Made by a program: the position numbers and the translations under genes. The notes below the pieces were generated by a model, which did no database searches, was not told the DNA's origin, and worked only from the letters and a program-made list of their open reading frames with translations. From Bilabrum cf. latius (taxonomy: Eukaryota), in contig OZ237736.1 of assembly GCA_965178125.1 (NCBI GenBank), positions 620,001 to 684,000 of the forward strand: DNA of 64,000 nucleotides. The letters are read 5' to 3'. Positions 29,624 to 62,310 of this stretch are shown here, piece after piece. The number at the start of each line of letters is the position of its first letter. Positions within the stretch are counted from its first letter, which is position 1.

Positions 29624-32398
29624 TCAGTCCCCGTCCCCGGAGTCTTGCCCTCCATCTACTGCGCGGCTGTTTCCATGTTGGCTCTACGCATCAGACCGAC
29701 CACGACCTAGCGGAGACATGGATCCTTTGAATGAAGGAAGGTCCAAGTCGGAATCTCCCGCGCTGGCCCACCGACCGCCAGCCTCAGGCCTCACCGCATC
29801 CGAGTCGCTTCCTGGCGGGGGAGGAGGGGGCGATATCTCGTCGCGGCCGTCATCATCATCGTGCACTGCACCCTGCTCACCCCCTTCTTGCCGGCTAGCC
29901 CAAGCCTCGATCGACCCCAGAAGATCAGCGGGCAGAGCACTAGCGTCCCCAACGTGGAACGGGGCGGCACTGGGATCGGCTGGGGAACTACCTGGCCTTG
30001 CTGTCACTGTCCGCTGTGTGGGACGGCCTGCGTTCCTCCGGTTTTTGCCGGCCTTGCTTTCCATACCACCAATCGGACCTGCAGGTCTACCCTGCAAGGC
30101 AGTCTTCCTCTTGCTCTTGCCATTGCCCTTGCCGATGGCCGTGCTACCAGCAGCTTGCCGCATCCCGCCTGGTCGTCTGGCCGGCGGCTTGTCCAATGCG
30201 CCCACCCCTGCAGACCTGCTTGATCCCATGGAGTGCCTTCCCGAGCCCATACCACCTCCGGCACCCACCCCTGTGATTGGACGCTCGTCAAGCACACCAC
30301 CTGCACCCAATCCGCTGGTTGGACGACCACTCAGATGCCGCTCCCGAATGCCCGCCGTGTTCAGCACACCCCCACCGATACTGTGCCGACTGCTTTGAGG
30401 CAACTTCCCGCCAGCACCGCTGCTAGGCCCACCACCAGGTAGCACACCTCCCACAGAGCCAGCAGCGGCAGGCCCGGTACCTGCTGCGCCTTCGCCGCGC
30501 AGGACACCGGCAACCAACTGCGCGCCAGGCCGTCTAATATGGTCAGCGAAGCGAGACTGCAGCTCCAACCTGTCCAAAAACGCTTGTTCCCTGGCGCGTC
30601 GCAGCTCCTCCTGCTTTCTAGCCTCCTCCTGGGCCTTCCTCTGTCGCATCCGCTGCGCCGGTGAAGAGGCCTCGTGGCCGCCTGCAGGCGGGCCGATCCC
30701 TGCACCCGGCTGCGCTGCACGCTGCCTGGACTCCAGTTGCTGCAAGGGCGCTCCAGCGTCGCGACGCGGCAACAAGTCTGTCTCAGAGTCTCGCTGTTCC
30801 ATGCCATCCCTGCTCCTCGCCGAGTCTTGCAACTTGGGGGAACGACGGAGCTGCCTGCCTCCAAACGGTGACGACGGAGCAACGTGTCGACGAGGAGGAG
30901 GTGCGAGCGGAGAATCCGTGGAAATATGCAAGCTCTGGTTGCTTTCGACTGGCCGGCTGTCGCGAGTGGGCGGTTGCGTTGTGCCTGGTTGCGCACTCGC
31001 TTCCAGCTAGTCGCCCTCGGCCCGTGCCTCGCGCGTCCGCTTCGACATGCCATCGATCGCCGCTTGCATTTGCGCCGCTGCGGGAAGGCTTGCCATCGGC
31101 GTGGCGGGTGGTCGAGTCCCTCCGCTGTGGTGTGGTCGATGCGAAGGCAACTGGCTGCCACCTCTGCTGCCTGCCCCTGGCTGTGGATCCTGCTGCTCGC
31201 CTGGCACAGCGTGAGCCTCAGCCTGCTGCTGCTACTGCTGCGGCGAATTGCGCTGCTCTGCCGGCGCTCTTCGCCTGCTTCCCAGTCGAAGCAACGAAAC
31301 CTTGGGTGCAAGCTGACGGCGAGACACTCCCGGCAGTGCCGCCGCCTACTAGTAGCCCGGTGCGTTGGCCTTACTAGAATGTTTACCACCACTGGCACTC
31401 GGTGCCGACGCGCTGACGATAGCAGTGGGCAATCGCAGCATGGCAGACGGACGCAGTTGCCGTCGACTTGCCGATCGTGCCCCGGGGGCTGCGTGCTGTT
31501 CAATGCGTGGGCCTGCTGCTGGTACTGCTGGCGGCGGTGCTTTGGCTGGCGCTGCGCCAGAGGAGCTGCCTGGTGCATGCAATCCGCTTTGCCCTGCAGG
31601 TCTGCTTGCGCTGGCTGCACTTGCAGCGTCTGCATTGCCCAAGTGCCTTGCGGCTGTCGGCGTGCCCAAAATCGACCTCAGGTGTGCGTGCACGGCTGGG
31701 TGTCTGACGATCTCCTCCAGGCTAGGCCTCTACGCGGGATCGGGTTGCAGCATCCACAGGCATAGCTCTTTCGCATTAGGACTAATTTCGGGTGAAAATG
31801 GAGACAATTGATTGTCTGCAACTGCTGCACCCACCGGCATATCTGCGAGGGGCTGGGTAGCTGCCGTATCTCTGTTGGAGCTGGAGCCTTCGCTCTCAGT
31901 GGCGCCGCTTTTCCTGAAGGCTCTCGTCGCGCGATCGAAGGGTCCTTCGCCGCGATGGAGCACAGAATACAAAACGCAGCCTATACAAAACACGGCTGCG
32001 CGGCCAGGCAGCTCGAGTCCGGCCAAGGGGCGGCCTCGAGGCGGCAACGTGTCTTGCTCGATCCGTTCCGGAGGCAGGACGTACTGACTGGCTCGAAGAG
32101 TATCTGTGAGCCTGACGTTCAGCATTATTGCGCCAGAGCTAGATGCTAAAATATTCTGAGGACGGAGATCTGCCATTTCCATTGCTTTCTTTGGAGTAGT
32201 CAAGCACCACGAAGCCAACTAGCCCACGACGGCTAGCCCGAGAGACTCAGCCTCTTTCGAGCGCATATCAAAGCTTAACAGTTGATCAAGAGACGTGACC
32301 GCCATGGTTGCGATCCCATCAATTCTCTCTATGAACCCATCGCTAGAAAGAACGATCTATGTGCCTCGAGTGCGACGGAAGGACGGAGACCTTGCCAT
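29624..32398 (-). CDS. Protein kinase-like (probable pseudokinase) C-lobe with a long disordered tail; start uncertain
   Basis: DLRPQNIL, YVLPPE, VFCIGCVLYSVLHRGEGPF and LWMLQPDPA*RPSLEEIVRHP (subdomain XI). No HRD, DFG or Gly-loop seen. The frame is continuous through TAGs to TGA 29624. Confidence 0.6.
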
Positions 32399-32501
32399 CT
32401 GGCGCTGCACACCTTCCTCTATAGTGAAGCACCAACGTATGCGCCTTCTTATTAGGAAGCGTGTCTGTGAGAGACGAACAGTGTTGCGTCGCCCGGAAAA
32501 G

Positions 32502-34700
32502 ATGATGAGTGCGAACGGCAACTTCGCAAGTTTGCAGGCCATCTGGGAACCTATGGCGATTCCACTAGCAGTCACAGCAGGTTTGGCCATAGTCGACTCT
32601 ATTACGGTGGTGGTTCATGCGTTTCGTGTGACTGACCCCTTCATGGTGAGCTTGGTTCGGGTTTAAATCTGTACTATCTGTCGCGTAGACTGCACAGTGG
32701 ACTTCACGACACAACATGAGCCCCGTTCAACCTTGCAGGATGAGCCCTTTCACGTGGGTCAGACGCAGTTGTTTTGCCGAGGCCGATTCGGTAAGATATC
32801 CAGCTACATTTTGCAGCTGCGATCTGCCAGCCATCTGCAACTCCAAGTCGATTCTCTATTGTGATCAGATATCGCAGACTTGTGGGACCCAAAGATCACA
32901 ACATTGCCAGGATCATACATTTTACCGTCATTGGTAGGTTGGCTTGCCCACACGTTAGGGGGAACCAGTGCATCCGATGCTGCGTGTAGCGTTAGCGCCT
33001 TGCGGGCATACTCTGTCTTGTGGACCGCAGTGACATATTTGGTTGCGGATTTGCTTGTTTTAAGATTGTCTATTTGGGCTGTGAAGCGATAGCGCGTGCA
33101 TATCACGGCCAGCCGGCAGTCTGCCACGTTGCTGATCCCGCTTGCTCTGGTGCTGTGGCCCAGCCAGCACTTTTACGCTTCGCTCGTGTACACAGACGCA
33201 GCTTCCACGTGCAGCGTACTCCTTTGCTGGCTGCTTGCATTTCGATAGGATGCAAGAAGCTCGAGCCTGATGGAATCTATGCCCGGTGCGTTGGCGGGAG
33301 CTGCTGCGATCATGATGAGGCAGACGAACGCCGTGTGGGTGGCCCTTGCTGCTGGTCTCTTGCTATGCAGGATGCACTGGGATCACCTTCCAAATAGAAT
33401 TGAAGCAATGAATACCCTGAGTAGAGCAAAAAGGGCAGAATACACGCTAAATCGGGAAAGACAGAATGCTGCTGTGCGAGCCGCGAGACGGTCGTGGCAA
33501 GGCAGTCTGACTGGTGTAATCCTTGATACGGTCTGGCTTGGTAACAATGGCCCATCCCTCGACTTAGTCCTGCGCCAGCTGTGGGGGTACGTGGCAATTC
33601 TAGTTGCCTTTGTAGCCTTCGTGCTTCGCAATGGCGGCATCGTGGTGGGCGACAGGCAGAACCACGTCCCTGTGGCCCACCTGGCGCAACCCATGTACCT
33701 TCTGCTCATCGCGGGCGGCGCGCTACTGGCCAGCGAGGTTGTCGGGTTGATGGCTATGTCAGCAGTTACTTGTCTTGGGTGCTATCGAGAAATGAAAGCA
33801 GAAAGCGCTGACGGACCCGCGAGGGCGGATGGCAGCAAGCAACCAGGGCAGCATGCAGCGTCTGCCTCTGCCTCTGCCTCTGCGTCTGTGCTGAGCGACT
33901 TGCAGCTTGTAGTGTCCCTGCTCTCGTGCGGGCTGGGCGGGCTACCAGAGGCTGATCCATCGCCGAGTGTGCCGAGCAGATACTCCACCCATGGAAACAG
34001 TTCCAGCGAAAGTGATACTGATTCCGAGTCCGGTGCGCAGACCGAGTCTGACAGCGGTTCGGATGCCGGCGGTCCCACAGATGGTATCAGGAGAAGAGCA
34101 GCCGCGGAGCAAGCGCCAGCAGGTGAGCACAGCGATGACCCCGCCTCAGCTCCTGGTGGTTTCGGGGAGGGCTCTGCAGCTGCCAATTGCAAGAATGAGG
34201 GCGAGGCCACCCCTCGTGCCGGCTCCAGGGCATGTCTCGCAGGCACTTGCGCCGCTTTGGTGCTGGTCTGGACCGGCGTTGCATTGGCAGCCGTGCACTT
34301 TGGGACGTTCTCGCATCCGTTTATCCTAGCCGACAATCGGCACGTTACGTTTTACTGGTGGCGAGCCATGCGCCGACCGCTGGTTCGGTATGGTCTAGCG
34401 CCCGCGTACGTGCTGTGCGGTATCGTGGTTCTAGGCAGGATCGCGAGGCAGTGGAGGAGCATCGCTGTGGCACAGCTGGTCCTGCTTGCAGCGTGCATCG
34501 CGCTTATACCTGCTCACCTCGTGGAGCCGCGGTACTTTAATGTTCCTGTGATGGCGGTTATGCTGCTTGCTGGTCTGCTACCATCTGAAGCAGGCGCCCT
34601 GGCAGCGATTGGCGCCGCCGTGCACGTCGCGATGCTGTGCGTGTTTTGGTTCCGGCCGTATGAATGGGGGGATGGATCTGTTGCGAGATTGATGTGGTAA
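32502..34700 (+). CDS. ALG10: Dol-P-Glc alpha-1,2-glucosyltransferase (ALG10/DIE2)
   Basis: PFM|DEPFHVGQTQ, WDPKITTLPG, YTD, RQTNAVW, NGGIVVGDRQNH, HPFILADNRHVTFY, LVEPRYF and RLMW. Introns 32646-32738 and 32791-32877. TAG at 33090 and 33246; ends TAA. Confidence 0.93.
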
Positions 34701-34872
34701 TGATACTCATAGCTAGTATCGGGATGGCGGCATCGTCGTGCCTTCTGTCGCTCTCAATGTTCATGAGGTTCGTCACCGGAACGAACCACAGCGAACCTCT
34801 GAGCGCTACGTTTCTCGACACAACATTTATCACCTCAAAACGCATCGTTAAGACTCTCAGCAAGCAATTACT

Positions 34873-36465
34873 ATGATCGTATCTCGCTAGCTTAAATCGC
34901 GGACCCTTCGTGCTCTTGCTTCCTCCGCAAGCACCGCTTGGAGAGCGCATTGCAACGCAAGGTTCGGTAGCTGTCAACTGCGCCGAGCTTCAACAGCCCA
35001 GGTCGCTGCAGAGGAGGTAAGCAACCAGGAGTGTTACACCGTGTATAGCGTATGCTATTTCAGGAAAGATTAGGGTCGTTAATTTGGGCTATTTCAAGTA
35101 TACCTAGTTTTGAACACACTTTTCGCCTTGCAGATGGAAAGGAAGTATCTCGTCCCAACATACAACTCAAGCGGAGTGCGCGCAAAAGAGGGTCTTGTGT
35201 TTGAGTCAGGCAGTGGCTCATATCTTGTTGACGAATCGGGCCGCCGATACCTGGACTTCTCAGCAGGTATTGCGGTGAACGCGCTCGGCCATTCTGATCC
35301 AAAGTGGATTGATGCGGTCACGTCATAGCTCCACAAGGTGACACATACCAGCAATTTGTATCATACTCGTCCTGCTCTGGACTTGGCTAAGGAATTGGTG
35401 GATCGCTCTGGCTTTGACAGGGTGTTTTTCTGCAACTCTGGTACGGAAGCGAACGAGGCAGCCCTGAAATTCTCTCGCAAATATCAGCTCCGTAGGTTGC
35501 AAAATTAGTCAAAGGTACCCACCAAGGTCGATTTTGCCTGCCAGAAAGGGAAGGATTCAGTGGAGTGCCGCACAGAAGGCGGTACCTGCGATTGCTGGCC
35601 GCAAGCATCGAAGCTGCAGGGTGGCTTTCGGCATGGAACGGTGGCATTCCAGAGCGGATTTCACGGAAGGACGGGTTTTGCCCTCTCTGTCACACACAAG
35701 CCCGCTATTCGGCAGCCGTTTGCTCCCATGATCCCGGATTGCACCTTCCTCCCGTACAACGATGCCGAGGCAGCCAAGCGGATCGGTGACGTGGCCCCGT
35801 CCACCGTGATAGTGGAGCCGCATGCAGGGGAAGGAGGCGTCATTGCAGGCACCCCTGCTTTCCTGGAGACGGTCGAGGAGCAGGCAAAGAAGGCCGATGC
35901 CGTTCTGATCGCAGACGAGGTGCAGTGTGGGCTGGGACGGCTGGGCAAGCTCTTCGCACACGAGGCGTACGGCATGCAGCCAGACATCATGACCCTGGCA
36001 AAGCCATTGGCAGGGGGGCTCCCGATCGGTGCTGTCCTCGTCAAGGAACACATCGCAAACGCGATCGATCCTGGAGACCACGGAACAACCTTCGGGGGCA
36101 ACCCACTCGTGTGCGCAGCTGCACTGCACGTCCTGAAGCGCATTGACACGCCAGAGTTCCTGGGACACGTCCGCACGATCGGAAAGGCTATCAAGGGCAA
36201 GGCGCTCGACATTTAGAAACGGTTTCCCCACGTCGTGTCAGAAGTGAGGGCACCCGTCACCGGTGGTCCCTTCGTTGGGCTGCAGCTGTCCGTGAGCCCG
36301 GCCCCGTTGGTGCAGCAGTGCGTGGAGGATGGGCTGCTCATCATCACCGCCGGCACGTCGACCGTAAGGCTGTGCCCGCCTCTGACGATGTCCATGGAGG
36401 AGGCCATGGCTGGCATGAACATGCTTGAGAGGGCAATGGAGACAGTGTTCGGCCAAGGGAAGTGA
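34873..36465 (+). CDS. Acetylornithine aminotransferase (ArgD/ARG8-like, class III PLP enzyme) with a mitochondrial presequence
   Basis: [70 protein letters not shown] and HGTTFGGNP. Intron 35017-35133. TAG at 34888, 35326, 35506 and 36214; TGA 36463. Confidence 0.93.
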
Positions 36466-36617
36466 GGCCAAGCTGCTCTCACAAAGCCCCAAACAGGAAG
36501 CTGTGCAGACATAGATTTTACAGGGGATCTACCTGCTTGCGCGTGCAAAAATGTATCACGATTCAACAAAATCATACGTACACTCAATACCAGCAAGGCC
36601 TCCATCCCGCCGAGGGC

Positions 36618-39600
36618 TCAGATCGCCTCCAGCAACTGCTCCACTCCTCTAGTGTACTGAACCAAGTCCACGGACGGTTTCATGAGCTTATCCAAAGCTT
36701 GGACTTCCTCTTGCGAGGGAGTCTTGGCTGGAGAAACCGTGGACTGCCCCGTGGCTGCACGCCCGTTGCGGTCCTGCGAATCGGTTCCAAACACATCCGG
36801 GATCCGTGCCGATCGTGCCATTGCTTTGCGCTCAACTAGCGACAGGCAGGCACGAGAGTGCAGTTGCCTCGTTGCATCGGCAAGAAAGCGAACCCTTGCA
36901 GACTGCATGTCTTGGTCAGAATAGTCTGGTGTCAGCAGAGTCGAGACCACAGCGAACCGCAGCTTCTGACAGCTCCGTTGCACCGCCCTCCAAGCGCGAA
37001 GCTCCCACCTCAGAGCTCCTAGCCCTCCCGAATGCATGCCCATGCCTCGTTCCGGATCATCCCCGCTGCCCTGCTATGGCGCAGACCCATCCAAGTCCGA
37101 GGGACGCACCGATGAATCAACTGCTGGTGCCGGATTGAATCTTGAGAAGGGTGCACTGAACTGAGATTTCTCCTCCACAGGCTCAACGGAATACTTCTTC
37201 ACGATCTGCGGCAGGAAAGAATGAAACGACTTCCCGCTGGCCGGTTGCACCAGCGCTGATGCATCTGCGGGGGAAATGCTGGTCCACTTCGGATTTCCGC
37301 CATGCTAGCACTGGAACGAGTAGTACCCTGCATAGGTGACGCCGAGAGAGCCGCAGTAGCCTGCCCTGCGAGCTGCACAAGACGCACACGCAAGGAATTG
37401 CGACCCCATCGACTTCACGCGAGGGGCAAATCTGTTGTAGTCTACATCCGCAAGCCCTGGAGGGATCACCACGAAGCATGGCTGCCTGATCTTACGAGAG
37501 GAGAGCGCCGTGCATAGGCCAGACACTAGGCATGCTTCCGCGAGCATTCTTGTGTCTCCCGTCGGACGGGGAACGACTCGACTCCGCTTGCTCTCTTCAA
37601 AGAGCGATTTTCCAGTCGGAAAGCTGCTGCCAGTGCTCCCGTATCCAGCCGGGTTGATACTGGCACTTCCAGAGCCAGCTGCAGCGTCGGTAGAGCCGCC
37701 ACCCGCGGCTGCCCCTGCATTGCTGCCAGTGCCCCCACTTGCTGGTGCATCATTCATTTTCATCTTTAAGAGCTTCATGGAGGATGCGATCATCGCGTAC
37801 GCCTGATTATTCCATGCGGATGATACCGATCGAATACCTAGACCGCCAGTCGTCCACTCTCTCAGGTTCACGCCGAACTTGAGCCCTGGTCCATCCTTGC
37901 TAGAAGTCGACTTGCTGCCAGATGACTCTCCTTCGACTGCGTCCGATAGCTGTTTGGTGAACTTCACCCCGAGCACGCCTTCAAGACGCAACAATATGGC
38001 CTGCAGCCGATCGCCGTTCCTCTTCGCATCGTCTGACATGTCGGAAAACACGCCAGTCGCTCGCGATACCCCTTCGTACTGGGGGCCCGACTTGAGCCTG
38101 TCTCGCAGTTCGACCTTCCTTTCGTCTATAGCTTTCTGTTCGTCCTGAGATACCTCCCCTTCGTTCCAAGATGTAGGCTACAGGCCCCCTGCTGTGCCAA
38201 CAGGGCATTTGTGGGAGTATCCATCCCACTTTCGCTTGCAAAGATCGCAGTACTCGTAACCGCACTCCTTGCAGGTCATGTGCTTGCAGCCGCCTTGCTT
38301 CTCGATGAAGACCTTGCAGTTGGGGCACCGCTTGAAGCTCTTCAGCATCATCTCTAAGCTAGCAGCCTCTGTCGATTTGTTGTGAGACTGCAGCCACATG
38401 GCCCACTGCTCGCACGAGGCTGGGTTGTGCGCCTCCTCGCCGCATAGAACGCACGCGCACCTCCCACAAGAACACTTCACCGTGCTCGATTCTGAGTCCC
38501 ACGCTGGAACCAGAACTCGCTAGCAAGCTATAGATCCGTTTGCCAACGAGCCTAGGTCTTCGGCGTCAGCCTCATCACCATCAGCAGCCGCATCCTGATT
38601 ACCACTGCCACCGGCTCCAGCGCTCGGAGTGCTTGCCGCCGCAGCCCCGCCAGAGCCACCAGACGTCGCCGCCATCTGCAGGGCTGCCATGTCAGATACA
38701 GCGGCAGGGTCTGCTGGCGGCTTCTTGCAGAATCTAAGCTCTCTCTACTGGTTCACGAACGATGTAAGCAAGAAGTACATGAATCGGCGGTACTCGTCAG
38801 GACCAGCGGAGCGCCGCCACAGCGACTCGGAGCATCCGCTGCCGCACTCGTGCTGAAGACATGCCCCTGTCAAGATGCACGCAGGGCCGGACTTGACCAT
38901 GGTGCGGAAGTGCTCCGACCAGCAGTTGTTGCAGAATCGGTGTCCGCACGACATGGCACTGGTCTGGTCCAACGGCACGCAAGCGAAGCACACCTCGCAC
39001 ATGAACTCCTCGTCGGCATCCTCTGCAGCAGCACTGTCTCCTCTAGATGTACCCAATGCCGCTGCACTACTTCCAGACGACGCATCTCTTGACGTAGCCA
39101 CGTATGTGCTTGCATGCGCGCGACCGTCGGGCGACAGCTTGGAGGCCTCTGCAGTCATCACAGGGTCATCCAGGAAAGTGGACACGGCCCGTTCCACGTC
39201 CCACTTTTGTGCCCGGAGCAAGAGTTCCCCATCGTCTAAGGAGAGACCAAGGGTTCCAGCCAGCTGTGCAGCCCTAGCCATGCGCAAGAGGTGCGTCTGG
39301 CTGGCCGTCAGGCTGGCCGATGGGCTTCCCGCATGAAGCAGATCGGCCACCTCCACGATCATGGCAGACGCCGGCACGGAGCCTGACAGCTCTGCATACA
39401 TGTGCTCGATATCCGCGTCGATCTGGGATTTTTCTCGCGCGAGGGCTGGGGCAGACAGCTGGTCTCCAGGGTCGGCTTCCGACATATCAGCCTCGCTGCC
39501 GGCAGACTCTCCGTCGCCTGCGACGTCTTGTGTTGAGCCGGACCGCTGAAACAAACTCATCGAGGCTCGGAGCGCCGCCTAGAGTGCGTCTGCGAATCCC

Positions 39601-44468: not shown

Positions 44469-44648
44469 TTGAGCTACTAGCAGAAGTGTTGCCGCTGGTT
44501 TCTTCATTCTTGCATTCATCTTCATCTGTGTTTGCACATCAATGCACTGCATCTTACCGGAGCAATTTGCCTTTTTACTGCCATTTTGCGCCCTGCGTCG
44601 AAGTTCTGGCTTAAAATGTGTACATATTGATGCATGCTTAATTTTCAG

Positions 44649-47591
44649 CGCCACGAAATCGGAAAGAGCGAGTGGGTATTTCTTGGTATCGTCGTCAGTG
44701 AACCTGAGCGATTACGTGCCGCCAATCGATGGGTTCGAGTGGATATAGATGAGGTCACTGGAGACGAGCCTGGCAAGTAGCCATAGCAAGTAACGCACGA
44801 CGACGATGTTACTAGTCGCCACCTCCCGGAATGGTTAAAACGAAGCAGACGAAACATTGCTCGTTTTTCTTCGTCACTGAACGAGCTGAAAGACGGAGTG
44901 TCTCGCTTGAAGGTTGGAATTGCCGCACTCAATGAAAAGGCCCAATAGACTGCCTCCGACAGAGACAACCTGGCTGCCCTCCAGGAGTCTGACGCTCGAA
45001 TGAGAGCGCTGCTGCGCAGCCGTAGCACGTTTGTAGAGTTCTTTTGCTAGTCACCTTTGGAGGTTGCGGCATGCATTGTGTCATGCTTGAATGTATCTGA
45101 CTTGTGTGCAACCGCTCGTCTGTGCAGATCTCTTACTTTGAGTCTGCAATCCAGTGCGAGCGCCATGGCCCCACTTTGGCAGGCGTCGATCGCGAGTTTC
45201 GGAGTGTGCGGAGGCATCACAGGCGGAGACGGATTGCAGCGGCTGGCTTCCACCTATCGAGGAACGGAGGTTGCACTTCATCCAAGCAAACAGGCTGCCT
45301 TAGCCCATTCTTGGCGAGGTGCACGGGCAAGCCAAGAGCTGCAGGATCACCATGACGCCAGCAAAAGCAGCGGTTCATTAGCAGTGCGCGATCGTAGAAA
45401 GTCTGCTGGATCAAGCCGCTGCACAAGTATGCCCGCTGTCCAAAAAGGCGCCGTTGCTTCGTCGGAAGCCGATGGCGCCGCTCCGCACCACGATTCTCGC
45501 GCACATCGAGGATTTCACGTCGGTCTTCTTGTGGCGCTCGAGGCATGCAGGAGTCTTGCTGCCAGGCTGAACCGGGCGCTAGATGACGCCGCAGATCGAG
45601 CTTGGCACAGAGCAAGCAGCATCCTCCAGGGGAGCAGTAATGTATCCTACCGACCAAGGGCAGTGGCGCATGGCCCATTTTCGGGCGGGAGACGAAGCCG
45701 CGCGGCAAAGAGCTCAGTATTCCATGACCTGTCCTCGAGCCGGCTACATCGCGGCTTGGAAGGCGCGTGCATCGTGTGCGAGTGCGCCGCACGGTCTGCA
45801 CTTGAGTACAGAGCAGAGGCAAGCCATCCTCGCCTGAGCGCTTCCACTGCCGCTGCCGGAGCCACTGCCAGTGGCCGTACCACCGCCAGGCGGTCCCTCC
45901 AGCAGGCAAGTTTTGCGAGTCGCACGTGGATCGCGCGGCTGGACCAGATGGAGCTGAATCGGGCATTGTACGCAGCTCTGCAGGAGGACCAATCGCAGTA
46001 TGTGGAGCTTGCAGCGCATGCTATGGCTAACCTGATAGCTGCACGAACGCACCACGCCGAAGCGCAGCGCATTATGCAGCAACCCGATTGGGTAGCTGGG
46101 AAACGAGATCACAGCTATGGGCTCGCCGGTGGTGATGCACCGGGCAAACTTAGAGACCATAAGCTTGAAAGCCACACAACCGGCACCCAATCAACATCTC
46201 GCGGCGGTTCTGCAACGCGCAGGAGTGTGCCAGGCATGGCGAGACGGCTCCGCGACCTTGTGCCGATCGCATCCAAATCCACGCAGGCTCTGCCAGCGAT
46301 GCACTCTGCAAGAGCGCTTTGCTCTCTCTTATTGTAGGATGCTGACCCTGTAATTGCTCCGGTCTAGGACTACATGATGAGGCATCTGCTTGGCCCGCAG
46401 CCCCCTGTGGGTCTATTAGATCTGTCTGTTGCTAGGCACGCCAGCTCGCCATTGCCCGACAATCATATTCATCTACCTGCATTGCATCAGTCGGACCCTG
46501 CAGTACCCAGACCTGTGCAGTCGCTACAGCGTGCGAGGGTATGCGCGCAGCACGTCGAGTATCCACAAGTGGCTGTCCTGTGGCCAAATCCTGGCACGTC
46601 GGAAGGGGGTCAGCACGAGCACACCAAAGCGATAGTACCCGGCGGGGATGTCTCTCCACGCACTGGCGGTAGTGTATCTCGCATGCTATTTGCAGCAAGG
46701 ATTCAAGCTGCATCCAGCTCTAGTGCAGCTCAACTACCGCAGAACCCGCTGATCGATGGCTTGGTGGACCCCGCTGGGTCACCTGCTGCCTCTGAACTAC
46801 CTCACATGGATACTTGGGTCGGCAGCATGGCATCATGGAGTGGCGCTGCCCAGCCGCAAATGCTCCTTCGGGTCGGCCTATTCCCTGACGGTGTTGTTTG
46901 CGGCTACGGTGCTTGCTCTGATGGCCAGCACGTGTTGGTTGGCGGGCGGATGCAGGTCAGCAGCGCGGCAGGGTAGGCGGCGGGGCGGCTCCATGTGACA
47001 TACATGAAGAAGCGGCGGGTAGGTAGCGAGACTTGCATGGATGGCAGGCAAGGTGGTGCCACCGGCAGTGCGTCTACAAGATGGCCAGAGATGCACCAGT
47101 TAAGTTCACCAAGGGTTGAGCCTGATGATACCTCAGGCAGCATCGACATGAGCGCCGTGCCGCATACTGCCCTTGGACTGCTGCATAGACTCAATGCAGC
47201 TGGAGGCGTGCACGGCGTGATTGAAGAAATGGAGCGGGAGTCGGCTCACCTGGTGCTGCTAGGGTACAGCTGCGGGTATCGACTACGGGCGGGGGCTGCA
47301 GGTCGGCACGTCGACATCCCATGGCCGAATGGCGGGGTGTTTGGTACCTGGGAGGTGGCGCGCTCCAAAGGAGGCGGGGGGAGCAGCGCGATGTCACGCA
47401 GTCCCAGTCGGGGATGTGCACCCTTGGGCGCGGGGGCAGCTCCAGGGAGCGCTTCCTTGCCACCCGTGGGTGGTGCTGCTACTGGCAGCACCAGCTAGCA
47501 TCAGACTGTGCCGTCACGTGACCGGCGGGAAGCCGTGCGTGGCGCTGGCGGCGTCTTTCGGCTGACAGTGCTCCCGGGGTAGACAGGATGA
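44649..47591 (+). CDS. F-box protein (start unresolved)
   Basis: C*SPLEVAACIVSCLNVSDLCATARLCRSL is F-box-like. One frame with TAG-only interruptions (e.g. 45048, 46335, 46974, 47496, 47580) runs to TGA 47589. Confidence 0.6.
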
Positions 47592-47748
47592 CTGCCATAG
47601 AATGACTACCAAAGGATATTGTTTTGCCCCGTACTCAATTATATGGATCATGAACGTTCACTGGGAGCCTCTGGAATTCGTCCCATGAGATCGGTCGCCA
47701 GGCCTCAGCCTCCGAGGATCACCCGCCATCGCTGGCTATCTCACTAAG

Positions 47749-48141
47749 CTCGGCTATCGACATGATTTCCCTACGTCGCATTGCCCTTGGAATGCTGCAT
47801 AGACTCAATGCACCTTGTGGTGGGCACCGCGCAATGGATGATGGTGCGGGAGTCGGCTCACCTGGTGCTGCTAGATGGGCACCAAAAGGGGGTTGCTGGA
47901 CGGCATGTTGACATCCCATGGCCCAATGGCGGGGTGTTTGGTACCTGGGAAGAGACGCGATGTTTGCAGTCCCAGTCGGGGATGTGCACCCTTGGGCGCG
48001 GGGGCAGCTCCAGGGAGCGCTTCCTTGCCACCCGTGGGTGGTGCTGCTACTGGCAGCACCAGCTAGCATCAGACTGTGCCGTCACGTGACCGGCGGGAAG
48101 CCGTGCGTGGCGCAGGCTGCGTCTTTCGATTAGCTGTGCTG
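47749..48141 (+). pseudogene. Tandem partial duplicate of the F-box gene 3' end (source about 47132-47573)
   Basis: About 47967-48113 is essentially identical to about 47399-47545. The upstream part is diverged, with deletions. Confidence 0.9.
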
Positions 48142-48255
48142 CATGCCTGTGGCGGAACGGAACGTTCCACACGAACCGAACCGAAACGTCCACCGCACAT
48201 GATGAATCGCAATCGCTTATCGGTGCAGATCTACGCTCTAAAGTACCTCACAGCA

Positions 48256-49941
48256 ATGGCTGCGCCGACAGTTCTAATTTTGATGTCATCAGTCGTCGTG
48301 TTGGTATCTAGCAAGGATCCTCTGGATGGGATAAAAGTCGCTGCGGTGCAAGCATACCCGCATCCGGAGCTCCAGCCTAACCTTGCACTGTACGCACCTG
48401 TCGCCGCCAATGCGTCTCAGTCGGGTGCAGAATTAGTTGTATGGCCTGAAGGCAGCAATGGATGGGTATTCTTGGCATCAAACGGATCTTTCGATCGTTC
48501 TGCGTACGCAAACTTCGGGGAGCAGCTGCCTGCGGTTGGGTCCCAGGCATCTACCGGTGGAGTGCAGATGAAGTCAATTGCTCAGGCCGCGCAGCAGAGC
48601 AGAATATAGATTGTTGCTAATTTGATCGAGATAGCTCCCTGCTCATCATCGTCGGACTGGCAATGTCCACCGGACGGCCGGTTTCTGTTCAATACTGACG
48701 TTGTTGTTGACCCGGACGGAGTGTTTCAGGCAGTCTACAGGAAATCTCACTTGAGTGGCACAAGTCCAGCCCTCGATTAGCCAGCACGACCAGACCCAGT
48801 CACGTTCAAGACGCCATCAGGGCTCCTTGCAGGCCTGCTGATCTGCCAGGATCTCTCCTTCCCACAGCCGTCGAGCCAGTATGCGAGGCCAGGCAATCAG
48901 GTAGATCTCGTGGTGTTTTCCACCGCGTGGTCTAACATAGCCCCTACCATACTCGTCACAAGCCTTGCACAGGCCTTCGCCAAGAATAACAAGGTGCCGA
49001 TCCTCGTGGCCAACCTGAACCAGGGCCCATCCAGGGATGGGGGAGGCCTATTCCTGTCCGATGGGACCCCTTAGCGCGTGTTTCTGCGACCTTTCAATGA
49101 AATTGGAGGTCTTGTGCTCCTCACCGCTTTCCTGCCTCACAATCAGGGTGCTGCAGCTGCGAGCTCGCAGCCTCTTGCGCTGTCTGCTTTGGGGGGTACT
49201 GTTGCACCAGACACGAGCGGATCGGAAGTCCGGGTCAACTAGAACTAGCTTCCTGCCACCACCAGCTACAGCGATGGGCAAGCAATCGCGAGCACTGCTG
49301 TCAGCACAACCGATTCTGCGAGCAAGACGTAGAGCACCCAAGGGCTTCTGCGGCACGGCACTGTGGCGCCGGTTCCGCAGCAATGCAGTGTGACCGGTTT
49401 CCAGATCCCTGCTCGCTGCCAACGCACCCCAGTGTCATTGAAACGGGCGCTGTACTCGGTGAATCCACCGACAGGCGGCCACTTGGAGTGCTCGTTGATA
49501 TTGAGGTGGGGCCAGGGCTCGATAGGTCCCGGCGATTCGGCGTCCTACCTCGTGGCAGCGGAATTTCCGCTCGTGGATCCGCATTCCTTGGACAACTTGA
49601 GCTTCTAGATATGCGCTTGGCTGCAGTGCCCGGACTTTCCGGTGTGCCTGGGTCCGTCGGCCGTGCTCGCCTCTCACACAAGGGTGGACTCCTTCGCGCT
49701 CGTGGCGGATGGGGTCAATGCTAGTGCGACTGTGTTTGGGGGCGCCACCGCGGGAATAGGGTTGCCTATTGACCCTCTTCTTGTGAATGCAACCGGGTGG
49801 TCTGCAGCGGACGCTGGGGCTGCGCAGCCAGGCGATGCCAAGCGGGCGTCCGTGGAGTCTATGCCGGGCTTTGGAGCCTCGCAGTCTGCGATGCTGCTTG
49901 GCGCACAGGTCATAGCAACAGCTCCTTTGTATGGGGGTTGA
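48256..49941 (+). CDS. Vanin/biotinidase-family (pantetheinase-like) nitrilase with a signal peptide
   Basis: Catalytic motifs VVWPEG, YRKSHL and ICQDL; CPPDGRFLFNTDVV; C-domain LSF*ICAWLQC (vanin LQIC). TAG at 48607, 48778, 49072, 49240, 49246, 49330 and 49606; TGA 49939. Confidence 0.88.
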
Positions 49942-50161
49942 TGGAGGGTGCATGATTGTTGATATCTGCTATAAAACGGAAAGATTTGCCCGCGCAGCTG
50001 GCCGCAAAAGCCGCGCTTTGCGTTTCTTGGTAACGTGTACATATTGCGATATCTCAGACCACCCATCCATGGGCCTTTCAATTCGTCTGAACAGCCCAAT
50101 CTTGCTGATTTGATCACAGACTAGCTAAATATTAGTATTTTGTGGGAAGTCGCAGGCTGAT

Positions 50162-53100
50162 ATGCAGCAGCGCCGCAAGGATACAAAAGGGAGGTCGAGG
50201 ACGGCTACCGAGAACGCAGAAACGCAGGGTCATGCGACGCGCTCGCGTTCAACACGGCGCCAGCAGCCCCAAGGAGTGACTGGAGCCTCATGGAGAGATC
50301 TTGCTCGATTACAGGGGGCGGCGCAGCCTGTTGGCAATGGGAGTCGAGTACCAGCGGGGCCTAAGTTGCGCACAGGTGGCAGCCAAGGCAGAACTCGACG
50401 AAGTGGCGAGAAGCGCAAGAGTTCGCGCGGACCTGATAAGCCAGAATCATTGGCTAGTACGCGAAAAGAAACGCATCCCTCCCGTGATCTGTCGGTTTCA
50501 AGCAGGGGCCGTACGGACCGAAGCACAGATGGAGCAAACAAGCGGCGGCAACGCCCGCTGCAGAAGCACGTAAAAAGCCGTGAAGCGCCTGAGTCTGCAG
50601 CTTCTGATAACTAGCATCAATCCACACTTGTTCCTTCGAGCGAGTCGTCGCCACAAAGGATTCCAGACGGAGCATTCGGTTCTATTGGTGGCGAGGCGAT
50701 TGGTGCTGACGATCTCGAGAGCTCTCCCATCGGTGGCCGGGGCAGCTCGATGACGCAAGGACTACCTAGCAACCTGTTTCCTTTCCGCATGCAGAGTGGG
50801 AGCGAAGCAGGCTCACTGGCCGCCGCCGCCTCCGGCCTAGTCTCCCTGCAGAGCGGGAGGGCGCCCGCTCCCTTGTTCAGCGTGGGGGGGCTGCAGGCAG
50901 CCGGCCCAGGATCGGCCCAGACCGACAGCACAGTGGTCCCGGAGATCATCAGCTCGAAAGAACTGGTTTTCTCATCAACCGAAAGTCCAGCTGCTGCAGA
51001 TGGCAGCGAGCTGAACCAACCAGTCTCCTCGTCTGCTGCTGACGCGCAAGCTCCGGAGGACCTGTTCTTTTTTGGCGCCCCTCAGGTGACGGCAGGTGTT
51101 GGTGGCGCACAAACTGAAACTAGGCACCCTGCTAGCGCTCCTGCTTAGGCATAGGCATCTATTCCCGATGCCTCGCAGGAAGTAGCCAAGCCCCTTGCCG
51201 ACCCGCATGTGTCTGGGCAGGCAGCAGGGGGCGTGTCCGGAGGGGGCCGGGCTACCAAGAAGACCGACTTGACCCTGTCTGCAGACGTATCGCTGGCTGT
51301 GTCTTCCACTGTTGGCTCTCGACCGACCTCGCCGAACGATGAAGTTCCCACGGCAGGGGGTCAGAGCTAGGACGCACCAGAAGAGGGAGAGGCTCAGAGT
51401 ACAGGGGCATCAGACGACCTGCCCAAGCCACGGAGGGCGGCGAGAGCCGAGCACGGCCCCGTGTGCGTGCGATAGGCCTTCACCAGAGAACAATTGGAGT
51501 CGGCCATCTTCGAGGGATACGCCGATGGGATCGTGGTAGCGGGTGCGAGCGGTCAGGGCAACGAGACCGCTAGCCCAGCTCCCGTCGCAGTGGAGCCCGG
51601 TACGTACGCCGAAGTTGACGTGCTGGCGCCTGCCCTGCATGCCATTCGTAGGGAAGCAGCTAGAACTGCGGCGTTGGAGGCGCAAGCAGCCGCACAAGCT
51701 GGCAAGAAAAAGAAGGGAGCCAGGGGCGCATCTGGCACCAAGGATGGCATCAAGGGCAAGAAGCACGTGCGACCACGGAGCGTCCCTGTCGCTGAGCTCG
51801 CTGCGCTCGTGCCTCTGGCAATCGAGGAAGCTGCAATGAAGGGTAGCCAGAAGCAGGGCAACGCTTCGGGAACTTTAGTTCGCCGCAGCGAGATTGATCC
51901 TAGCGCGCTGCTATCGGGCGATGGTGCAAGGGAAGCAGCTAGCGGGGCAGGCGCCTCCAGCGGCTCTCGCCGCACAGTCCAGGACTCGCTTCCGGAGGTA
52001 GAGAGACGACTTGCTGAAATCGCCTTTCAAGGCAAGGTGCGCGACGGCTTGGTCAGCCCCGCTGCTGTTGCACGCAAGCTGGACGCGATCGTGGAGAACC
52101 AGGAGGTACTGGCCAGCCAGAACCGGCTGCTGAGCTCGGTGCCACCCACTGAATCGACCGATGATGCGGCCAAAATGGTATCTGGGCAAGCGTCAGCAAT
52201 CGAGACGCTTGTTGATGCTATGCTGGGGCCTGGAGGCGCTTTGCAGCAAGGAGACGTGTGCGTGCTGCGTGGTGGCGCGGCATCAACGTTGGAGTCCGTC
52301 GTCGATATCAATGCCGCAGGTATGGACGGGGACGACGGAGGCTCCCTGCTAGAAAGCAAGGCATCGGACGACGCTGACGCGGAGACGGAGTCAAGCAGCG
52401 AAGACGAGCGCAAGAGCTCCGACGATGCCGCGAGCGCCGGCCAGCGTCGGCGCCCCGTCCTGGCTAGCCTTCTCGTCCGAGTCTCAAAGACCACCGATGG
52501 AGTGGCGCTCCAGACGTCCAAGGCAGGCGATACCACTGGTGTCGAGCGACCGGCGGAAACCGACGATGTGGCTCTGTCTCTGTACCAGCAGGCAGCTGCT
52601 GCCATCTCAACGCTCCGCACGGCGCAGAACTCGCAGGGGCAGTGGCATTGCCCGAAACCAGTGAGCGTCAACAGTAGGGCACACGAAATCATCGCAGCGA
52701 GGCCGCCGTCGGCCCCTCCATCCGTGCCTGTAGGTGACTGGACAGTGCAAGACCTGGGCACGCTGCAGGACGCGGTGTCTGCTGCGGCCTATCCGATCGT
52801 GTCTCAAGCCATCAGCAAGGTAGCAACGTTCCGGTCCACATACCTCGGTGCCCTCTCTGCCCACGCCCGAGAGGTGCTCCAGCCAGCGGTTGAGTCCATG
52901 ACGGTTGGCCTCACGTCCCAGCTCGCAACGCTGCAACGACTGCAGGCGGACGTTGTGTCAGGCCGCAGCGCTGGGTCGCCACCTCCCGTGCTCGCAGATC
53001 TCTGGTCTGCCGCCGCCCGATCGGAGACTCCCGTCGGTGATGCGGGGGTGCCTCGTGCAGCCAAGCTAGGAAAGGCCGTTCGCGAGGCTGTGCAGGCTGA

Positions 53101-56100
53101 GCGAGGGACAGCAAAGAGCGAAGATATCGCTTAGGAGGAAAGGGCGGTCGCAGCTTCGTCGGTCGCAGTGATGGCGCTTATCCGCGCATTTGGGACATTT
53201 GCTGTCAGCCTCGCCGGTCAGCTTCAGGCCAAGTGTGCAGCTGCTGGCAACGAAGACGTAGATGTGCCTGCAGATGAGCTGCGCGTGATGGTCCGGACGG
53301 CTTCATCAATGGCGCAAGATCAGCTCTCTATGGCTCTGTGCCGAGTCTCGAGGTGGAGGCAGGCGGTGCTTGGCGTCGCAGCCCAGGCGTCGCGGTTGTC
53401 AGCAGAGACTGGAGTGCGATTGCTGCAGATGGTGGACAGCAACACTGGGTCTGCGTCGAGGGCGTAGCTCCTTGCTCCGTTTGCATGCCAGGGCGGCGTT
53501 CCAGAGGCCAACGAGATCGACCAGCTGTCCAAGAGTGCGCTCTCTGAGTTGGCCGGCAGGGTGGCCGCTGCCGTGACCCCGTCGATGCAGGCGCTCGAGG
53601 ACTCCGCCCGTGCTGCTGGCACTTCCCACGGCTCGATGGGCCGCGACGTTGTGAGCACTGTAAGGACAGGCCTGCGCGCTGCCAAGCTGCTCGCAGGCGA
53701 CGGCGTTGAGAAGAAACTCGGTCACATTGAGACGGTGGCTAGGCAGAACAACCCGAGGGCAGCAGTCGCTGTGGGTCCCTCGGCTGGAATCGGCAGTACC
53801 GCAGCCCTTGCCAAGGCAGCCGCGCTGGCCAGCTGCCCTCCTGACGTGGGAGGTGAGCTGTCACCGCTGGCCTCGTCTGCCGCACGGTCGGATCTGGACA
53901 AGGCAGTAGCTGCCAAGGTTGCGTTAGAGAACAGCGCGCACATGCAGGCAGCACACGTGTGCGCAGGCGTGATTGGTGGACTCGCTGATGACGAGGTGCA
54001 GGTGGCTGGTGCTCTCTCGGGTGACCTTGAGCTGCGCAGGCTGGACAGGACTGGCATGCTGCAGCGACTGCAGGCTGATGCTGCAGCTATTGAAGGACGC
54101 CTCAGCGAGGCCGAGCACAAGCTGCAGGCTGCCAGGACGAGCGGTCCACCACCCGGCCTGGAAAGCCCCGTGCCTGCTCTGCAGTCAGAATGCGAGAAGC
54201 TAGCGAGAGAGAGGCAGGGCCTCGCTGTCAAGATCAGGGCTCTGCAAGAACGGGCTGGTTCAGCACAGGAAGCGGTCCGCGTCGCGGCCCTTGGATCCCC
54301 TGTGCTCGCAGAGGCGGCTGAGCGATGGCGTGGGGCTGCCGCTGCCCTCGAGAGCGCATCGCCGGATGCTGCCCGGGACTTGCTGTTTCGCGTGCAGGGC
54401 GGCAGCGATGCTGCGGATTCGGCGGGTGCGGGTGCAACCGATGAGCAAGGTGGCACTGACAAGGCTCTCATCTAGAGCCGGGCATCTTCACCGCTTCGAC
54501 TTGGGGCAAGTGCTGCGCTGCAGCTGCTCGGTGCATTCGGCGATGCGGTCCAAGCTGGAGTCGCTGCTGACAGCGCGGTGCGCGCGAGCTCCATCCGCAA
54601 TTCCATCGCGCAGCTTGGCCAGTCGGTTCTTGCTGAGTGCAGGGCAATCATTGGTGGAGGTATTTCTAAGATTATCTCGGAGCTTCGTGAGGTGCTGGTC
54701 GAGGACTCGCAGGCAGCAGCAGCCTCGGGCATGTTCCCCGCAGTACCTCGGTCAAGCGAAGAGCTTGAGGCGCTGAGTATTAGCGGGACCTCCACTGGCG
54801 GTGTTGCTGATGCAGACGTGGCGGCATCCTTGCAGCAGGCTGCGCGCGGCTTGCACGCAAGCGTGCAGGGCGCGACAGTGTTCCCTCTCACAGAGCTTGT
54901 TGGCCACGTTGCTTCTGGTATCAGGACGGATGTAGCTCCCATCATCGGGTCGTGCATGCAGGCGCATGTTGCATGCGCACTTGCCGTGATTGGGGCAGTG
55001 CGCAAGCAAGAAATGATGGCTGCTAGCGAGTGCGTCGCACCGCTGGTGCGCCTTCGCCGGGCCATTCAAGAGCAGGTCACGGCCCAGGCACGACAGGTCG
55101 CAGGGTGGGCGGTGGCGTACGGCTGCTTGACGGTGCTGCGCAGGCGGCATTGGCGACTTTACAGGCAGGCCTGGCAAGGCGTGAACCCCGGCATCCCTGC
55201 GAACCCGAACGCAGTGCAGTGGGGCGCGGGTGCGGCTGAAGGGATCATCGGCTCGGCTGTCGCTGTGGTGGACGATGCTGTCATTGCATCGAGGCTTCGA
55301 AGCAGCCTAACTATCGAGGCTCTGCCCGCTGGGAAGTGGGCCGTCCCTCGGCTGCTCGACCCTGCAACGCAGGTTGAGCGGGCCAGCGACCGAGCAAGAG
55401 TAGGTCGCGAGCTGGCCGATGCGCGAGCCAGGGCCATCGTAGCCGAGTAGGAAGCGACATCATTGCGAGCAGACCTTGGTATGGTGCTCGACGAGGTGCG
55501 CGCGTTTGCAGCCAAGGCTAAAGAATCCAGGGCCGAACAGGCAAGGTAGGCCGCTGCCGCCATGTAGGGAGGCATGGCGCGCAAGGTGGAGGCCCTGCGG
55601 TCCTCTATGGCCACCCACGGTGCCAAGGCGGCAGGTGCGGCTGCCGAGCTGATTGGCCAGCTGGGCGGGCTCGAGGGGCAGATCGGCGAGTTCTAGTACA
55701 TTGGCGCGACTTTGCTCGATGGATGGAGTCGCAGAGACACGGCCTCTGACGTATCAAGGAGCGAGGTAGGCCAGCTTGTGCATGCTGCCTTTCAGGAAGC
55801 GCTGCAAGACTCCGAGGCTACGCCGTAGGTGCTGCAGGCGATAGAACGCGCCGCCGTGGCTGCCTGCCAGCGCGTGGATCCAGCTGGGGAGGCACCTTTG
55901 GCGGTATTGGTTGGGCTTCACCTGCGGGCATGCCTGGAAGCACTTGTTGATGTCGCAATCGTCTCGCCCTTGCAGGCGGCGGGCCAATAGCTGGAGACTG
56001 ACGGGCGCAATGTTCAGACCGAGATTGACCAAGGTGACGGGTAGGACGGTGCGGATTTGTCAGACCGTGTGGCGCAACTGCAGGCGACTTTGCAAGCTTC

Positions 56101-57472
56101 TAGAGCGCACCTTATCGCCGCAGCTCGCTCTCCTGATGCTGTGTTAGCAGCAGGTGCGCGAACCTCCCTGCAGATCGCCTCGTAGACTATAGCCGGTGCT
56201 CTGGGGAAGCTGCTGGATCGGGCCAAGGGGCAAGTGGGGCGGGCCAGCGATGCTGCAAAGCAGGCCGCAGGTGCCACAAAGTCCCGGTTTGACCACCTTA
56301 CCTCGCTGGCGCAGCGGCACTAGCGGCAGGCCCAGGAAGAGAGGAGCCTCAGGGCCAAAGCCGATTCGTCGATCAAGACCGAGTCGGACAATCAGCAGAG
56401 ACTGAGTGAGGAGCTGGAGGAACAGCGCGCAAGGGCCAATCTTGCGCGGGAAGAGCTAGAGCGCACGCGAGCCGAGCTCGAGGCGAGCCGCCGGAGGCTG
56501 GAGGAGACGGGTGCCGCACTGCGCAACGCCAACGATCGGGGATCCAGCCTGCAGACGCAGCTGGACCAAAAAGAAGCCTTGCTGGAGGCAGTTGGCAGCC
56601 AGTTAGTTGACAAGCGAGCAGGCAAATCGCAGCTGCACTACCCTGGACCAGCAGATGTTCAGGCGAGTCATTCTGGGATGGCAGCCGTCGGTTCCGACGC
56701 TCCTGCCCAGTCCAGGCGCGCACAGTCAGATCCTCACGGCGCGGGGCCATCCTCGGCATCGGATGCCCTTGCATCTAAGCGGGAAACGAGTGGTGACACG
56801 ACCGGAAGCGCGCCTGCCAAGCATTCGTCCGGTGCTGGTGATGATAGCGTGCATGCCTCGGGAGGGCCTACCGATGTCTCTGTTCCTGGTATAGGTCTGC
56901 CTTCCGTAGCTGGTGGCGGCTCCGTACCGGCGGGTTTGCCAGAGCTGGACCAACAAGCTGTGGCGGCTGCCGGCGGAATGGCCGGCAGCTTGCCCACTGT
57001 GGCTCCTACCGCAGGCCCGTGGCAGCAGCAGGGCCCTGCGCCGGGCTTCCCGCCAGGCAGCATGGGCATGCATTCCGGCGGCCATGGACGGTACACTGCT
57101 GCAAGTGGTGGTCCGCCGCCCGGCCTCGGCATGCAGCAAGGAGGGTACCCTCCCCAGATGCAGATGTACCCTCCCGCGGCTGGTGGCCAGCAGGGATGGG
57201 GCCCGCCACCACAGAGAGGTGGGTGGGGCCCGCCGCCTATGGCACAGGGGCCATACCATGGCGGGCCGTAGATGGGTGGTGGTCCGCAGCCCGGCGGGCC
57301 CGGCATGGGCCAGCACTACGGGATGCATGGCCAGATGGGTGCCCCTGTGGGGATGCCTCCGCAGCAGTTCAGCGGCGGGCTGCCCATGCAGTAGCAGCAG
57401 CAGCAGCATTACCATGCGCACGATCCGTCGATGTCGCAGTTTGGCGGTCACTCTGGTGGCGGTGGGTGGTGA
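50162..57472 (+). CDS. Large Ala-rich helical/coiled-coil protein (2,436 aa) with a Gly/Pro/Gln/Met-rich C-terminal tail; function unknown
   Basis: Seven supplied ORFs share one frame and all end in TAG; reading through gives TGA at 57470. Coiled-coil near 56330-56600. TAG lies inside a CAG run at 57392. Confidence 0.75.
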
Positions 57473-62164: not shown

Positions 62165-62310
62165 CACCCTGGCAGCTGTGCAAGAAGGAAAATATATTCC
62201 GGTGCAACTGGATAATGTAAGGTGGGTTTTAAAGACGCACAAATCCGTATTATGTTGCAGAACACTGGCTGCTGTTCGCGCCCCATTTACCCGACATAAG
62301 CCCATAAATC

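Follow-up and report, generated by a model that had tools for sequence, protein, structure and literature searches.

The protein-coding frames of a 64,000-nucleotide stretch of DNA from Bilabrum cf. latius (assembly GCA_965178125.1, contig OZ237736.1, positions 620,001–684,000 of the forward strand; hereafter the window, with positions counted from its first letter) are interspersed with the triplet TAG, raising the question of how UAG is read in this organism. An earlier note on this DNA had claimed that UAG, and specifically UAG, encodes glutamine, pointing to TAG triplets inside CAG runs of two genes and at positions taken to be typically Gln in several protein families. All the TAG sites that it listed are indeed present where it placed them. 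The conclusion that we reach is the same, and it stands on evidence other than the arguments of that note. We consider it highly probable that the window is nuclear DNA from an intron-poor, GC-rich microbial eukaryote in which UAG is a sense codon, most probably for glutamine, with UGA as the main stop codon and UAA in a minor role, as in NCBI translation table 15.

Stop codons and reading frames in the window

Read with the standard code, the window has stop-to-stop frames of up to 763 codons. When TAG is treated as a sense codon the longest frames reach 2493, 2447, 1771, 1738 and 1536 codons, whereas treating TAA or TGA as sense in place of TAG yields no frame in the window above 763 codons. 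If TAA is read as sense in addition to TAG, no long frames fuse and their gain in length does not exceed 19 codons. The counts that follow were made on 15 long ATG-started open reading frames (ORFs), totaling 15,409 codons. These contain 102 in-frame TAG and not a single in-frame TAA or TGA, to be compared with 138/140 TAG, 51/45 TAA and 237/331 TGA in their two off-frames. Such a pattern is far from what chance would produce. At least one in-frame TAG is found in 12 of the 15 ORFs, and the triplets are spread evenly along the sequences (6 to 14 per decile, with no enrichment toward the 3' end). The base on their 3' side is distributed much like the base that follows the sense codons CAG or GAG, and TAG makes up 13.5% of the TAG, CAG and CAA codons taken together.

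The frames obtained in this way encode recognizable proteins. Pfam matches include a class-III aminotransferase, FEN1/XPG, ALG10, a pantetheinase-type CN-hydrolase and dual-specificity/PTEN-like phosphatases, as well as LRR, ankyrin and IBR domains, an amino-acid kinase and a kinase C-lobe, the last one scoring below the gathering threshold. The GC content of the window is about 0.59 (0.56–0.64), and its genes are eukaryotic nuclear genes.

The word "specifically" in the claim of the earlier note implied that UAA was left untouched, and this proved correct. The 15 ORFs end with TGA in 13 cases and with TAA in two. With 177 CAA for 477 CAG (a ratio of 0.37), about 38 in-frame TAA would be predicted if TAA also encoded glutamine, and none is seen. 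Moreover, the acetylornithine aminotransferase (ArgD) gene of a relative found in metagenomes, presented below, stops at TAA where its counterpart in the window has TGA. TAA is therefore not reassigned and remains a stop codon, since it is absent in frame, its suppression merges no ORFs, and it ends two of the 15 ORFs and the ArgD gene of the relative. UAG within genes carried by mRNAs, together with termination at both UAA and UGA, corresponds to table 15, while UAA as an in-frame sense codon, which table 6 would imply, is not encountered once in the 15,409 codons.

TAG codons in spliced transcripts

Four public sequencing runs that contain DNA of the window (X1, X5, X6 and X8) were compared with it over positions 29600–49599. 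Run X1 provides a colinear contig covering 29600–47427 that agrees with the window and keeps the introns, and thus behaves as genomic DNA. Runs X5, X6 and X8, which come from two other studies, provide gene-sized contigs in which five short introns with GT..AG (or CT..AC) borders are skipped. Two of these introns are at 32645–32737 and 32790–32876. The third one, of 117 nucleotides (nt) and bordered by GT..AG, lies on the plus strand in the 5' leader of the ArgD gene (35015..35131); the joint 35014/35132 is found in both X5 and X8, while the X1 contig runs colinearly across it. The last two belong to a gene encoding an RBR E3-ligase-like protein, one of 178 nt at 43634–43811 and one at 44283–44368, both spliced in the same X5 contig (record 12). 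Because spliced joints are found where the DNA contig of X1 retains the introns, we interpret the contigs of X5, X6 and X8 as cDNA; the runs are not labeled as RNA, and this assignment derives from the joints.

Four genes carrying TAG are covered by such contigs of run X5. The first is a kinase-like ORF on the minus strand (29624..32590), with eight in-frame TAG and a TGA end, which matches the C-lobe of Pfam Pkinase (E-value 2.5e-6, below the gathering score); the contig spanning 29600–32461 (record 9) has its eight TAGs with no other letters and no gaps relative to the window. The second is the ArgD-like gene on the plus strand (35134..36465, 443 codons, TGA end; Pfam Aminotran_3, E-value 5.5e-104), whose TAGs start at 35326 (codon 65, in AVTS[TAG]LHK), 35506 (codon 125) and 36214 (codon 361); all three are in the contig covering 35132–36546 (record 11), without differences or gaps. 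The third is the large last exon of the RBR gene on the minus strand (36618..43633, TGA end), which encodes ankyrin and RBR (IBR) domains according to its matches to Pfam Ank_2 and IBR and to its alignments with ARIH1. Its 14 TAGs (from 43193 to 37076) are found in the contig covering 36538–43633 (record 12), again with no differences and no gaps. An ATG-initiated ORF starting at 44063 had been considered for this gene and was found to be wrong given the 178-nt intron; all 14 TAGs of the gene fall within the large exon. The fourth is a 985-codon ORF of no known family on the plus strand (44634..47591), with nine TAGs, one of which (47580) precedes its TGA by three codons; the contig spanning 44645–47637 (record 13) contains nine TAGs and neither differs from the window nor shows gaps. 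Altogether, 34 TAGs in four genes are unchanged in spliced contigs, and are therefore neither intronic nor edited in the RNA at those sites.

The ArgD protein can also be followed across its TAGs by homology. Its alignment with solved acetylornithine aminotransferases (E-value 1.5e-88 for PDB 2e54) proceeds in one frame on either side of TAG-65 and TAG-125, which means that a working enzyme requires translation through TAG. These results bear on the possibility that the TAGs are never translated, either for being located in unrecognized introns or pseudogenes, for resulting from assembly errors, or for being changed to CAG by mRNA editing. These genes do contain short GT..AG introns; however, the TAGs of the cDNA-like contigs, obtained in two other studies, are neither spliced out nor changed, homology continues in frame across TAGs, an independent DNA contig matches the window, and relatives have TAG at other, and apparently also at the same, positions of the same genes. 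We regard this possibility as extremely improbable. UAG lies in expressed, spliced and unedited coding sequence, and translation continues in frame through it. As a sense codon, as the earlier note had it, UAG is thus documented both by the frames of the window and by its transcripts.

The amino acid encoded by UAG

The two TAGs embedded in glutamine runs, to which the earlier note pointed, were both confirmed. On the minus strand, CAG CAG TAG CAG CAG CAG occupies 31240–31223, with the TAG starting at 31234, and corresponds to codon 453 of the kinase-like ORF. On the plus strand, ATG CAG TAG CAG CAG CAG CAG occupies 57386–57406, with the TAG at 57392 (codon 2411), in a 2436-codon low-complexity/coiled-coil ORF that has 19 TAGs and ends with TGA (50162..57472).

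Close relatives of the window proteins allow a direct comparison. Two metagenome contigs, L001 and L002, encode an ArgD 80% identical to that of the window, with the same RBR gene as neighbor and with in-frame TAG; their flanks do not align with the window at the DNA level, the conservation of the neighboring gene being visible at the protein level only. In addition, ten short protein fragments of relatives (P0121–P0130) are 81–95% identical to window proteins. Together, these contigs and fragments provide 12 aligned segments of 48–95% identity, 11 of which are in the range of 80–95%. Five of the fragments end exactly at TAG positions of the window, which is explained by the fact that a gene caller using the standard code would cut a TAG-using relative there. 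Three of them correspond to a 1535-codon ORF of no known family on the minus strand (57698..62305, 14 TAGs, TGA end) and end at its TAGs 882, 1024 and 1502, while fragments matching the 985-codon ORF end just ahead of TAG-781 and TAG-51. The use of TAG is common to at least two relatives.

In these alignments, the TAGs of the window most often face glutamine in the relative. In ArgD, the residue opposite TAG is Q at positions 65 and 361, and E (encoded by GAA) at position 125. In the RBR protein it is Q at 1282 and 1481, K at 2253 and T at 2330. The 1535-codon ORF has Q opposite TAG-1376 and E opposite TAG-933 and TAG-1147, and the 985-codon ORF has Y opposite TAG-49. Conversely, at the three sites where the relative has the TAG, the window has Q in all three. 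Overall, the 14 pairs amount to eight Q, three E, and one each of K, T and Y, with neither L nor S. At the codon level, four of the five ArgD sites exchange TAG with CAG and one exchanges it with GAA. The fragments of more distant proteins (P0131–P0134; 36–50% identity by BLASTP and 41–56% by phmmer) were left out of the 14 pairs as unreliable; in their gapped regions, P, Q and L stand opposite TAG.

The likelihood of these 14 partners was calculated for each possible meaning of TAG, using substitution frequencies obtained from the 2319 aligned pairs without TAG in those alignments (pseudocount 0.5). The log-likelihood is -28.0 for Q, followed by E (-45.6), N (-54.3), H (-55.8), K (-57.6) and Y (-65.1). 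The lead of glutamine over any other residue is thus 17 natural-log units or more, glutamate, the next best, being 17.6 units worse.

More distant homologues provide one highly informative position. In the alignment of the best 120 homologues of ArgD, the residue facing TAG-65 is Q in 98 sequences, N in 11, S in three, A in three, G in two and E in two, with one gap and with neither L nor Y. In the same alignment, position 361 is variable, Q being the commonest residue (26), followed by P (19), D (14) and E (14), and position 125 is located in a lineage-specific insert. The tabulation of orthologous residues opposite TAG had been set as a test beforehand; glutamine dominates in it over leucine, tyrosine and glutamate, and neither ArgD-65 nor the pairs with relatives are columns dominated by one of these three residues. 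UAG is accordingly found opposite Gln, as in table 15, in a sample that is small and that includes an excess of E. Judged from these alignments, the amino acid inserted at UAG is most likely glutamine, in agreement with the earlier note.

Observations weighing against glutamine as the only reading of UAG

Several observations weigh against so simple a decoding. First, ArgD-65 is the sole TAG located in a deeply conserved column, and at the other sites the distant homologues are mixed. A pantetheinase/vanin-like CN-hydrolase is encoded on the plus strand at 47875..49941 (eight TAGs, TGA end; Pfam CN_hydrolase, E-value 1.2e-18; human pantetheinase, E-value 2.3e-25), and human pantetheinase has Y, V and S, in variable columns, opposite three of its TAGs. 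The site of the same ORF for which a Gln had been expected from the vanin C-domain (LSF[TAG]ICAWLQC, 49606) lies beyond the region alignable with human pantetheinase, which ends at residue 427. The motif DPA[TAG]RP of the kinase-like ORF (31732–31730, minus strand), also described as typically Gln, falls in a variable column in which Aurora A does have Q, while Aurora C has E; at position 124 of this ORF, both Aurora A and Aurora C have E, in a very weak alignment (domain E-values of 16–36). Solved aspartokinases show E/K/N and K/A/A-or-L opposite the TAG sites of an aspartokinase-like gene, the E at one site being that of M. jannaschii, and ARIH1 has N, in a variable column, opposite a TAG of the RBR gene. 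The two remaining parallels that had been proposed, DAL[TAG]AALRASM in the RBR exon (39581–39579, minus strand), likened to a UIM, and LQEL[TAG]SL in an LRR exon (near 17687), correspond to real sites; their positions are variable, and the parallels are weak. Taken together, the residues of distant homologues (Y/V/S, E/K/N, K/A/A-or-L, N and Q/E) scatter in a way that would neither favor nor oppose glutamine. The composition of the flanks does not discriminate either, as Q within two residues amounts to 6.9% for TAG, 5.7% for Q and 4.4% for E, and a multinomial likelihood computed on the flanks places I, L and Q within two units of one another.

Second, glutamate is more frequent than it should be. 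E faces TAG in three of the 14 pairs, compared with seven of 165 for E facing Q codons (binomial p about 0.02), and the relative that is 94% identical offers three informative sites, which are Q, E and E. Codes in which UAR means glutamate are known in peritrich ciliates, and one may ask whether UAG is a sense codon for Glu here, or is decoded as a mixture of Gln and Glu. Besides the pairs just mentioned, this would fit with the GAA opposite TAG-125 of ArgD, the E of Aurora C at the kinase site and that of M. jannaschii aspartokinase. In contrast, E is found in two of the best 120 homologues at ArgD-65 where Q is found in 98, the TAGs of relatives face Q of the window three times out of three, the codon exchanges in ArgD are with CAG at four of five sites, and the likelihood is 17.6 units below that of Gln. 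We therefore consider a Glu or mixed meaning very unlikely. The excess of E may come from TAG being located at weakly constrained sites, where a change from E to Q through GAG to TAG would be tolerated, and there is a small chance that it leaves room for a relaxed or dual Gln/Glu decoding.

Third, two TAGs are very close to a gene end. In the LRR gene, TAG immediately precedes the stop (…GL TAG TGA, 16949..16951, minus strand), and the 985-codon ORF ends with …PG TAG ACA GGA TGA (TAG at 47580–47582, plus strand). A TAG within three codons of TGA is thus found in two of the 15 ORFs, against an expectation of about 0.3 based on the density of TAG, and it is possible that UAG occasionally terminates translation. 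Such a pattern could be produced by a dual codon, read as Gln within genes and as a stop near the true 3' ends, depending on context as in Condylostoma or karyorelict ciliates. However, the terminal TAGs can equally be explained as former stops that are now read through, TAG is not enriched in the 3' deciles of the ORFs, 13 TGA and two TAA are available as stops, and in the three covered genes the transcript contigs terminate 46–81 nt past the TGA stop. A context-dependent UAG is for these reasons unlikely, and the terminal TAGs are possibly fossil stop codons that ribosomes now pass on their way to the next stop. A sense codon most probably meaning glutamine is the interpretation that we retain.

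Proposed decoding mechanism

By analogy with known systems (passages in PMC5304391), UAG would be read by a tRNA-Gln with the anticodon CUA, which would not read UAA and would be a single anticodon base away from tRNA-Gln(CUG). In parallel, the release factor eRF1 would have lost efficient recognition of UAG and kept that of UAA and UGA. The motifs by which eRF1 recognizes stop codons are GTS, NIKS and YxCxxxF, and in Iotanema the Thr of GTS is changed (PMC5304391). A scan of the 64-kb window returned no tRNA gene, and eRF1 is not among the genes that the window encodes.

Other genes and features of the window

A PTEN/DSP-like phosphatase is encoded on the minus strand at 18396–23684, by an ORF of 1762 codons with 11 TAGs and a TAA stop at 18396..18398. 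It also has a weak CBS match. Ten of its 11 TAGs are located in a low-complexity tail near the 3' end, which includes an (AGA)n/(GAA)n peptide repeat (AGAAGAAGAAG…) with a weak collagen-like match in Pfam.

The ALG10-like gene on the plus strand (33270–34700; Pfam DIE2_ALG10, E-value 1.1e-50) has a TAA stop at 34698..34700, directly followed by TGA. Sequencing depth rises sharply at 33602–34268, to 546 in X5 (10–90 elsewhere) and 373 in X8, with loose contig ends gathered at 33854–33887. The spike is probably due to a simple repeat common to other loci, in the Ser/Ala/Asp-rich low-complexity part of this gene.

An aspartokinase-like gene on the plus strand (62443–63998) runs past the end of the window. 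Its short exon 1 (MKFSGSQL…) has a TAG at about 62497, and after an intron its exon 2, starting at about 62715, has three further TAGs.

Some 40 residues, four of them cysteines, are inserted in the ArgD protein (35506–35630, residues 125–165 approximately), and the insert is present in the mRNA contig. This insert is absent from the five solved homologues and is found in few others within the printed part of the alignment; the insert and its cysteines are conserved in the 80% identical ArgD of L001.

A stretch of about 55 residues, SRGCAPLGAGAAPGS…VFRL, occurs in two nearly identical copies, one at the C-terminus of the 985-codon ORF (about 47430–47600) and one at the N-terminus of the vanin-like protein (about 47970–48140). 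A TAG occupies the same position in both copies. The X1 DNA contigs break around them (at 47427, 47516–47995, 47966–48113 and 48084), and the pair reflects either a local duplication or a repeat to which the assembly is sensitive.

Further upstream, an ORF at 3166–4500 contains at about 3550–3720 (plus strand) a perfect tandem repeat, read as seven RGTVLPIS units in one frame; an ORF overlaps it on the opposite strand and the coding strand is ambiguous. Among the joints found in the transcript contigs, 39149/41827 and 40077/47382 were rejected as introns, having no GT..AG borders and sides of 20–21 nt, and were taken as chimeras or repeats. The DNA of positions 35000–44200 was also found (64–100% of sampled words) in runs from four studies that carry four coded organism labels, and the organism may live with other organisms or contaminate their cultures.

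Lineage and comparison with known genetic codes

In a FastTree phylogeny of ArgD, the window sequence and the protein P0001 branch beside Cafeteria and the protein P0003 (support 0.79), inside a clade that includes oomycetes (0.98). This single-gene tree tentatively groups the organism with stramenopiles. Full-text literature searches, which covered neither subscription journals nor supplements, turned up no altered nuclear code described for a stramenopile, and the one match on stramenopiles concerned a cited paper on labyrinthulean mitochondria. This could be the first nuclear code change of stramenopiles, with an independent origin of UAG as Gln and UAA as stop in a GC-rich, intron-poor lineage close to bicosoecids, shared by at least two to three environmental relatives and thus by a whole recoded clade. 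We put forward this proposal as a tentative one, somewhat more open to doubt than to acceptance. The type of code is already known, and it is the lineage that appears to be new for it.

Nuclear code changes are rare, and those in which UAG and UAA are uncoupled are rarer still. Uncoupling is described for a handful of lineages in the portions of PMC11687900 devoted to it. Each independent origin provides a test of how stop codons are captured, through mutation of a tRNA anticodon, change of eRF1, GC content and stop codon usage, and a GC-rich organism that terminates mostly with UGA offers a contrast to the AT-rich ciliates that terminate with UAA. There is also a practical consequence, as standard-code gene callers break these genes up, and what databases contain of the relatives' proteins are pieces that stop at TAG. 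Annotation of the Bilabrum cf. latius genome and of related metagenome bins requires table 15.

The combination of UAG as Gln with UAA and UGA as stops (table 15) is given in passages of PMC5304391 and PMC11687900 for Iotanema spirale (Fornicata) and for the ciliates Protocruzia tuzeti, Hartmannula sinica and Trochilia petrani. As in these lineages, UAG alone is reassigned in the window, its inferred meaning is Gln and UAA is kept as a stop. The extent of use is also similar, with TAG in 12 of the 15 ORFs compared with 78–84% of genes in the two phyllopharyngeans, and a share of 13.5% of Gln codons compared with 18.5% in Hartmannula sinica (values excerpted from PMC11687900). Unlike those ciliates and metamonads, the organism studied here is placed with stramenopiles by its ArgD tree, is rich in GC and uses TGA as its main stop (13 of 15), while the ciliates described in these passages mostly use UAA.

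The code with both UAR codons as Gln (table 6) is reported in the same parts of PMC11687900 for many ciliates, hexamitid diplomonads, ulvophycean algae, Streblomastix and Amoeboaphelidium. The window shares with it the reading of a UAR stop codon as glutamine, together with TAG inside CAG runs, and differs from it in that UAA is not a sense codon, being absent in frame and used as a stop.

Other codes also decouple UAG from UAA, as listed in sections of PMC11687900: UAG is Leu in the rhizarian exLh and in phyllopharyngean metagenome-assembled genomes from TARA, Ser in Scotinosphaera and Glu in the ciliate PL0344. The window departs from the Leu and Ser codes by the absence of both residues in the 14 pairs with relatives and by their counts at ArgD-65 (no L, and S in three of the best 120 homologues), and from that of PL0344 by the far lower likelihood of Glu. 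Finally, crAss-like and other gut phages also read TAG as Gln, by means of a phage suppressor tRNA acting in a bacterial host (as outlined in parts of PMC9523058), whereas the TAGs described here belong to the spliced nuclear genes of a eukaryote.

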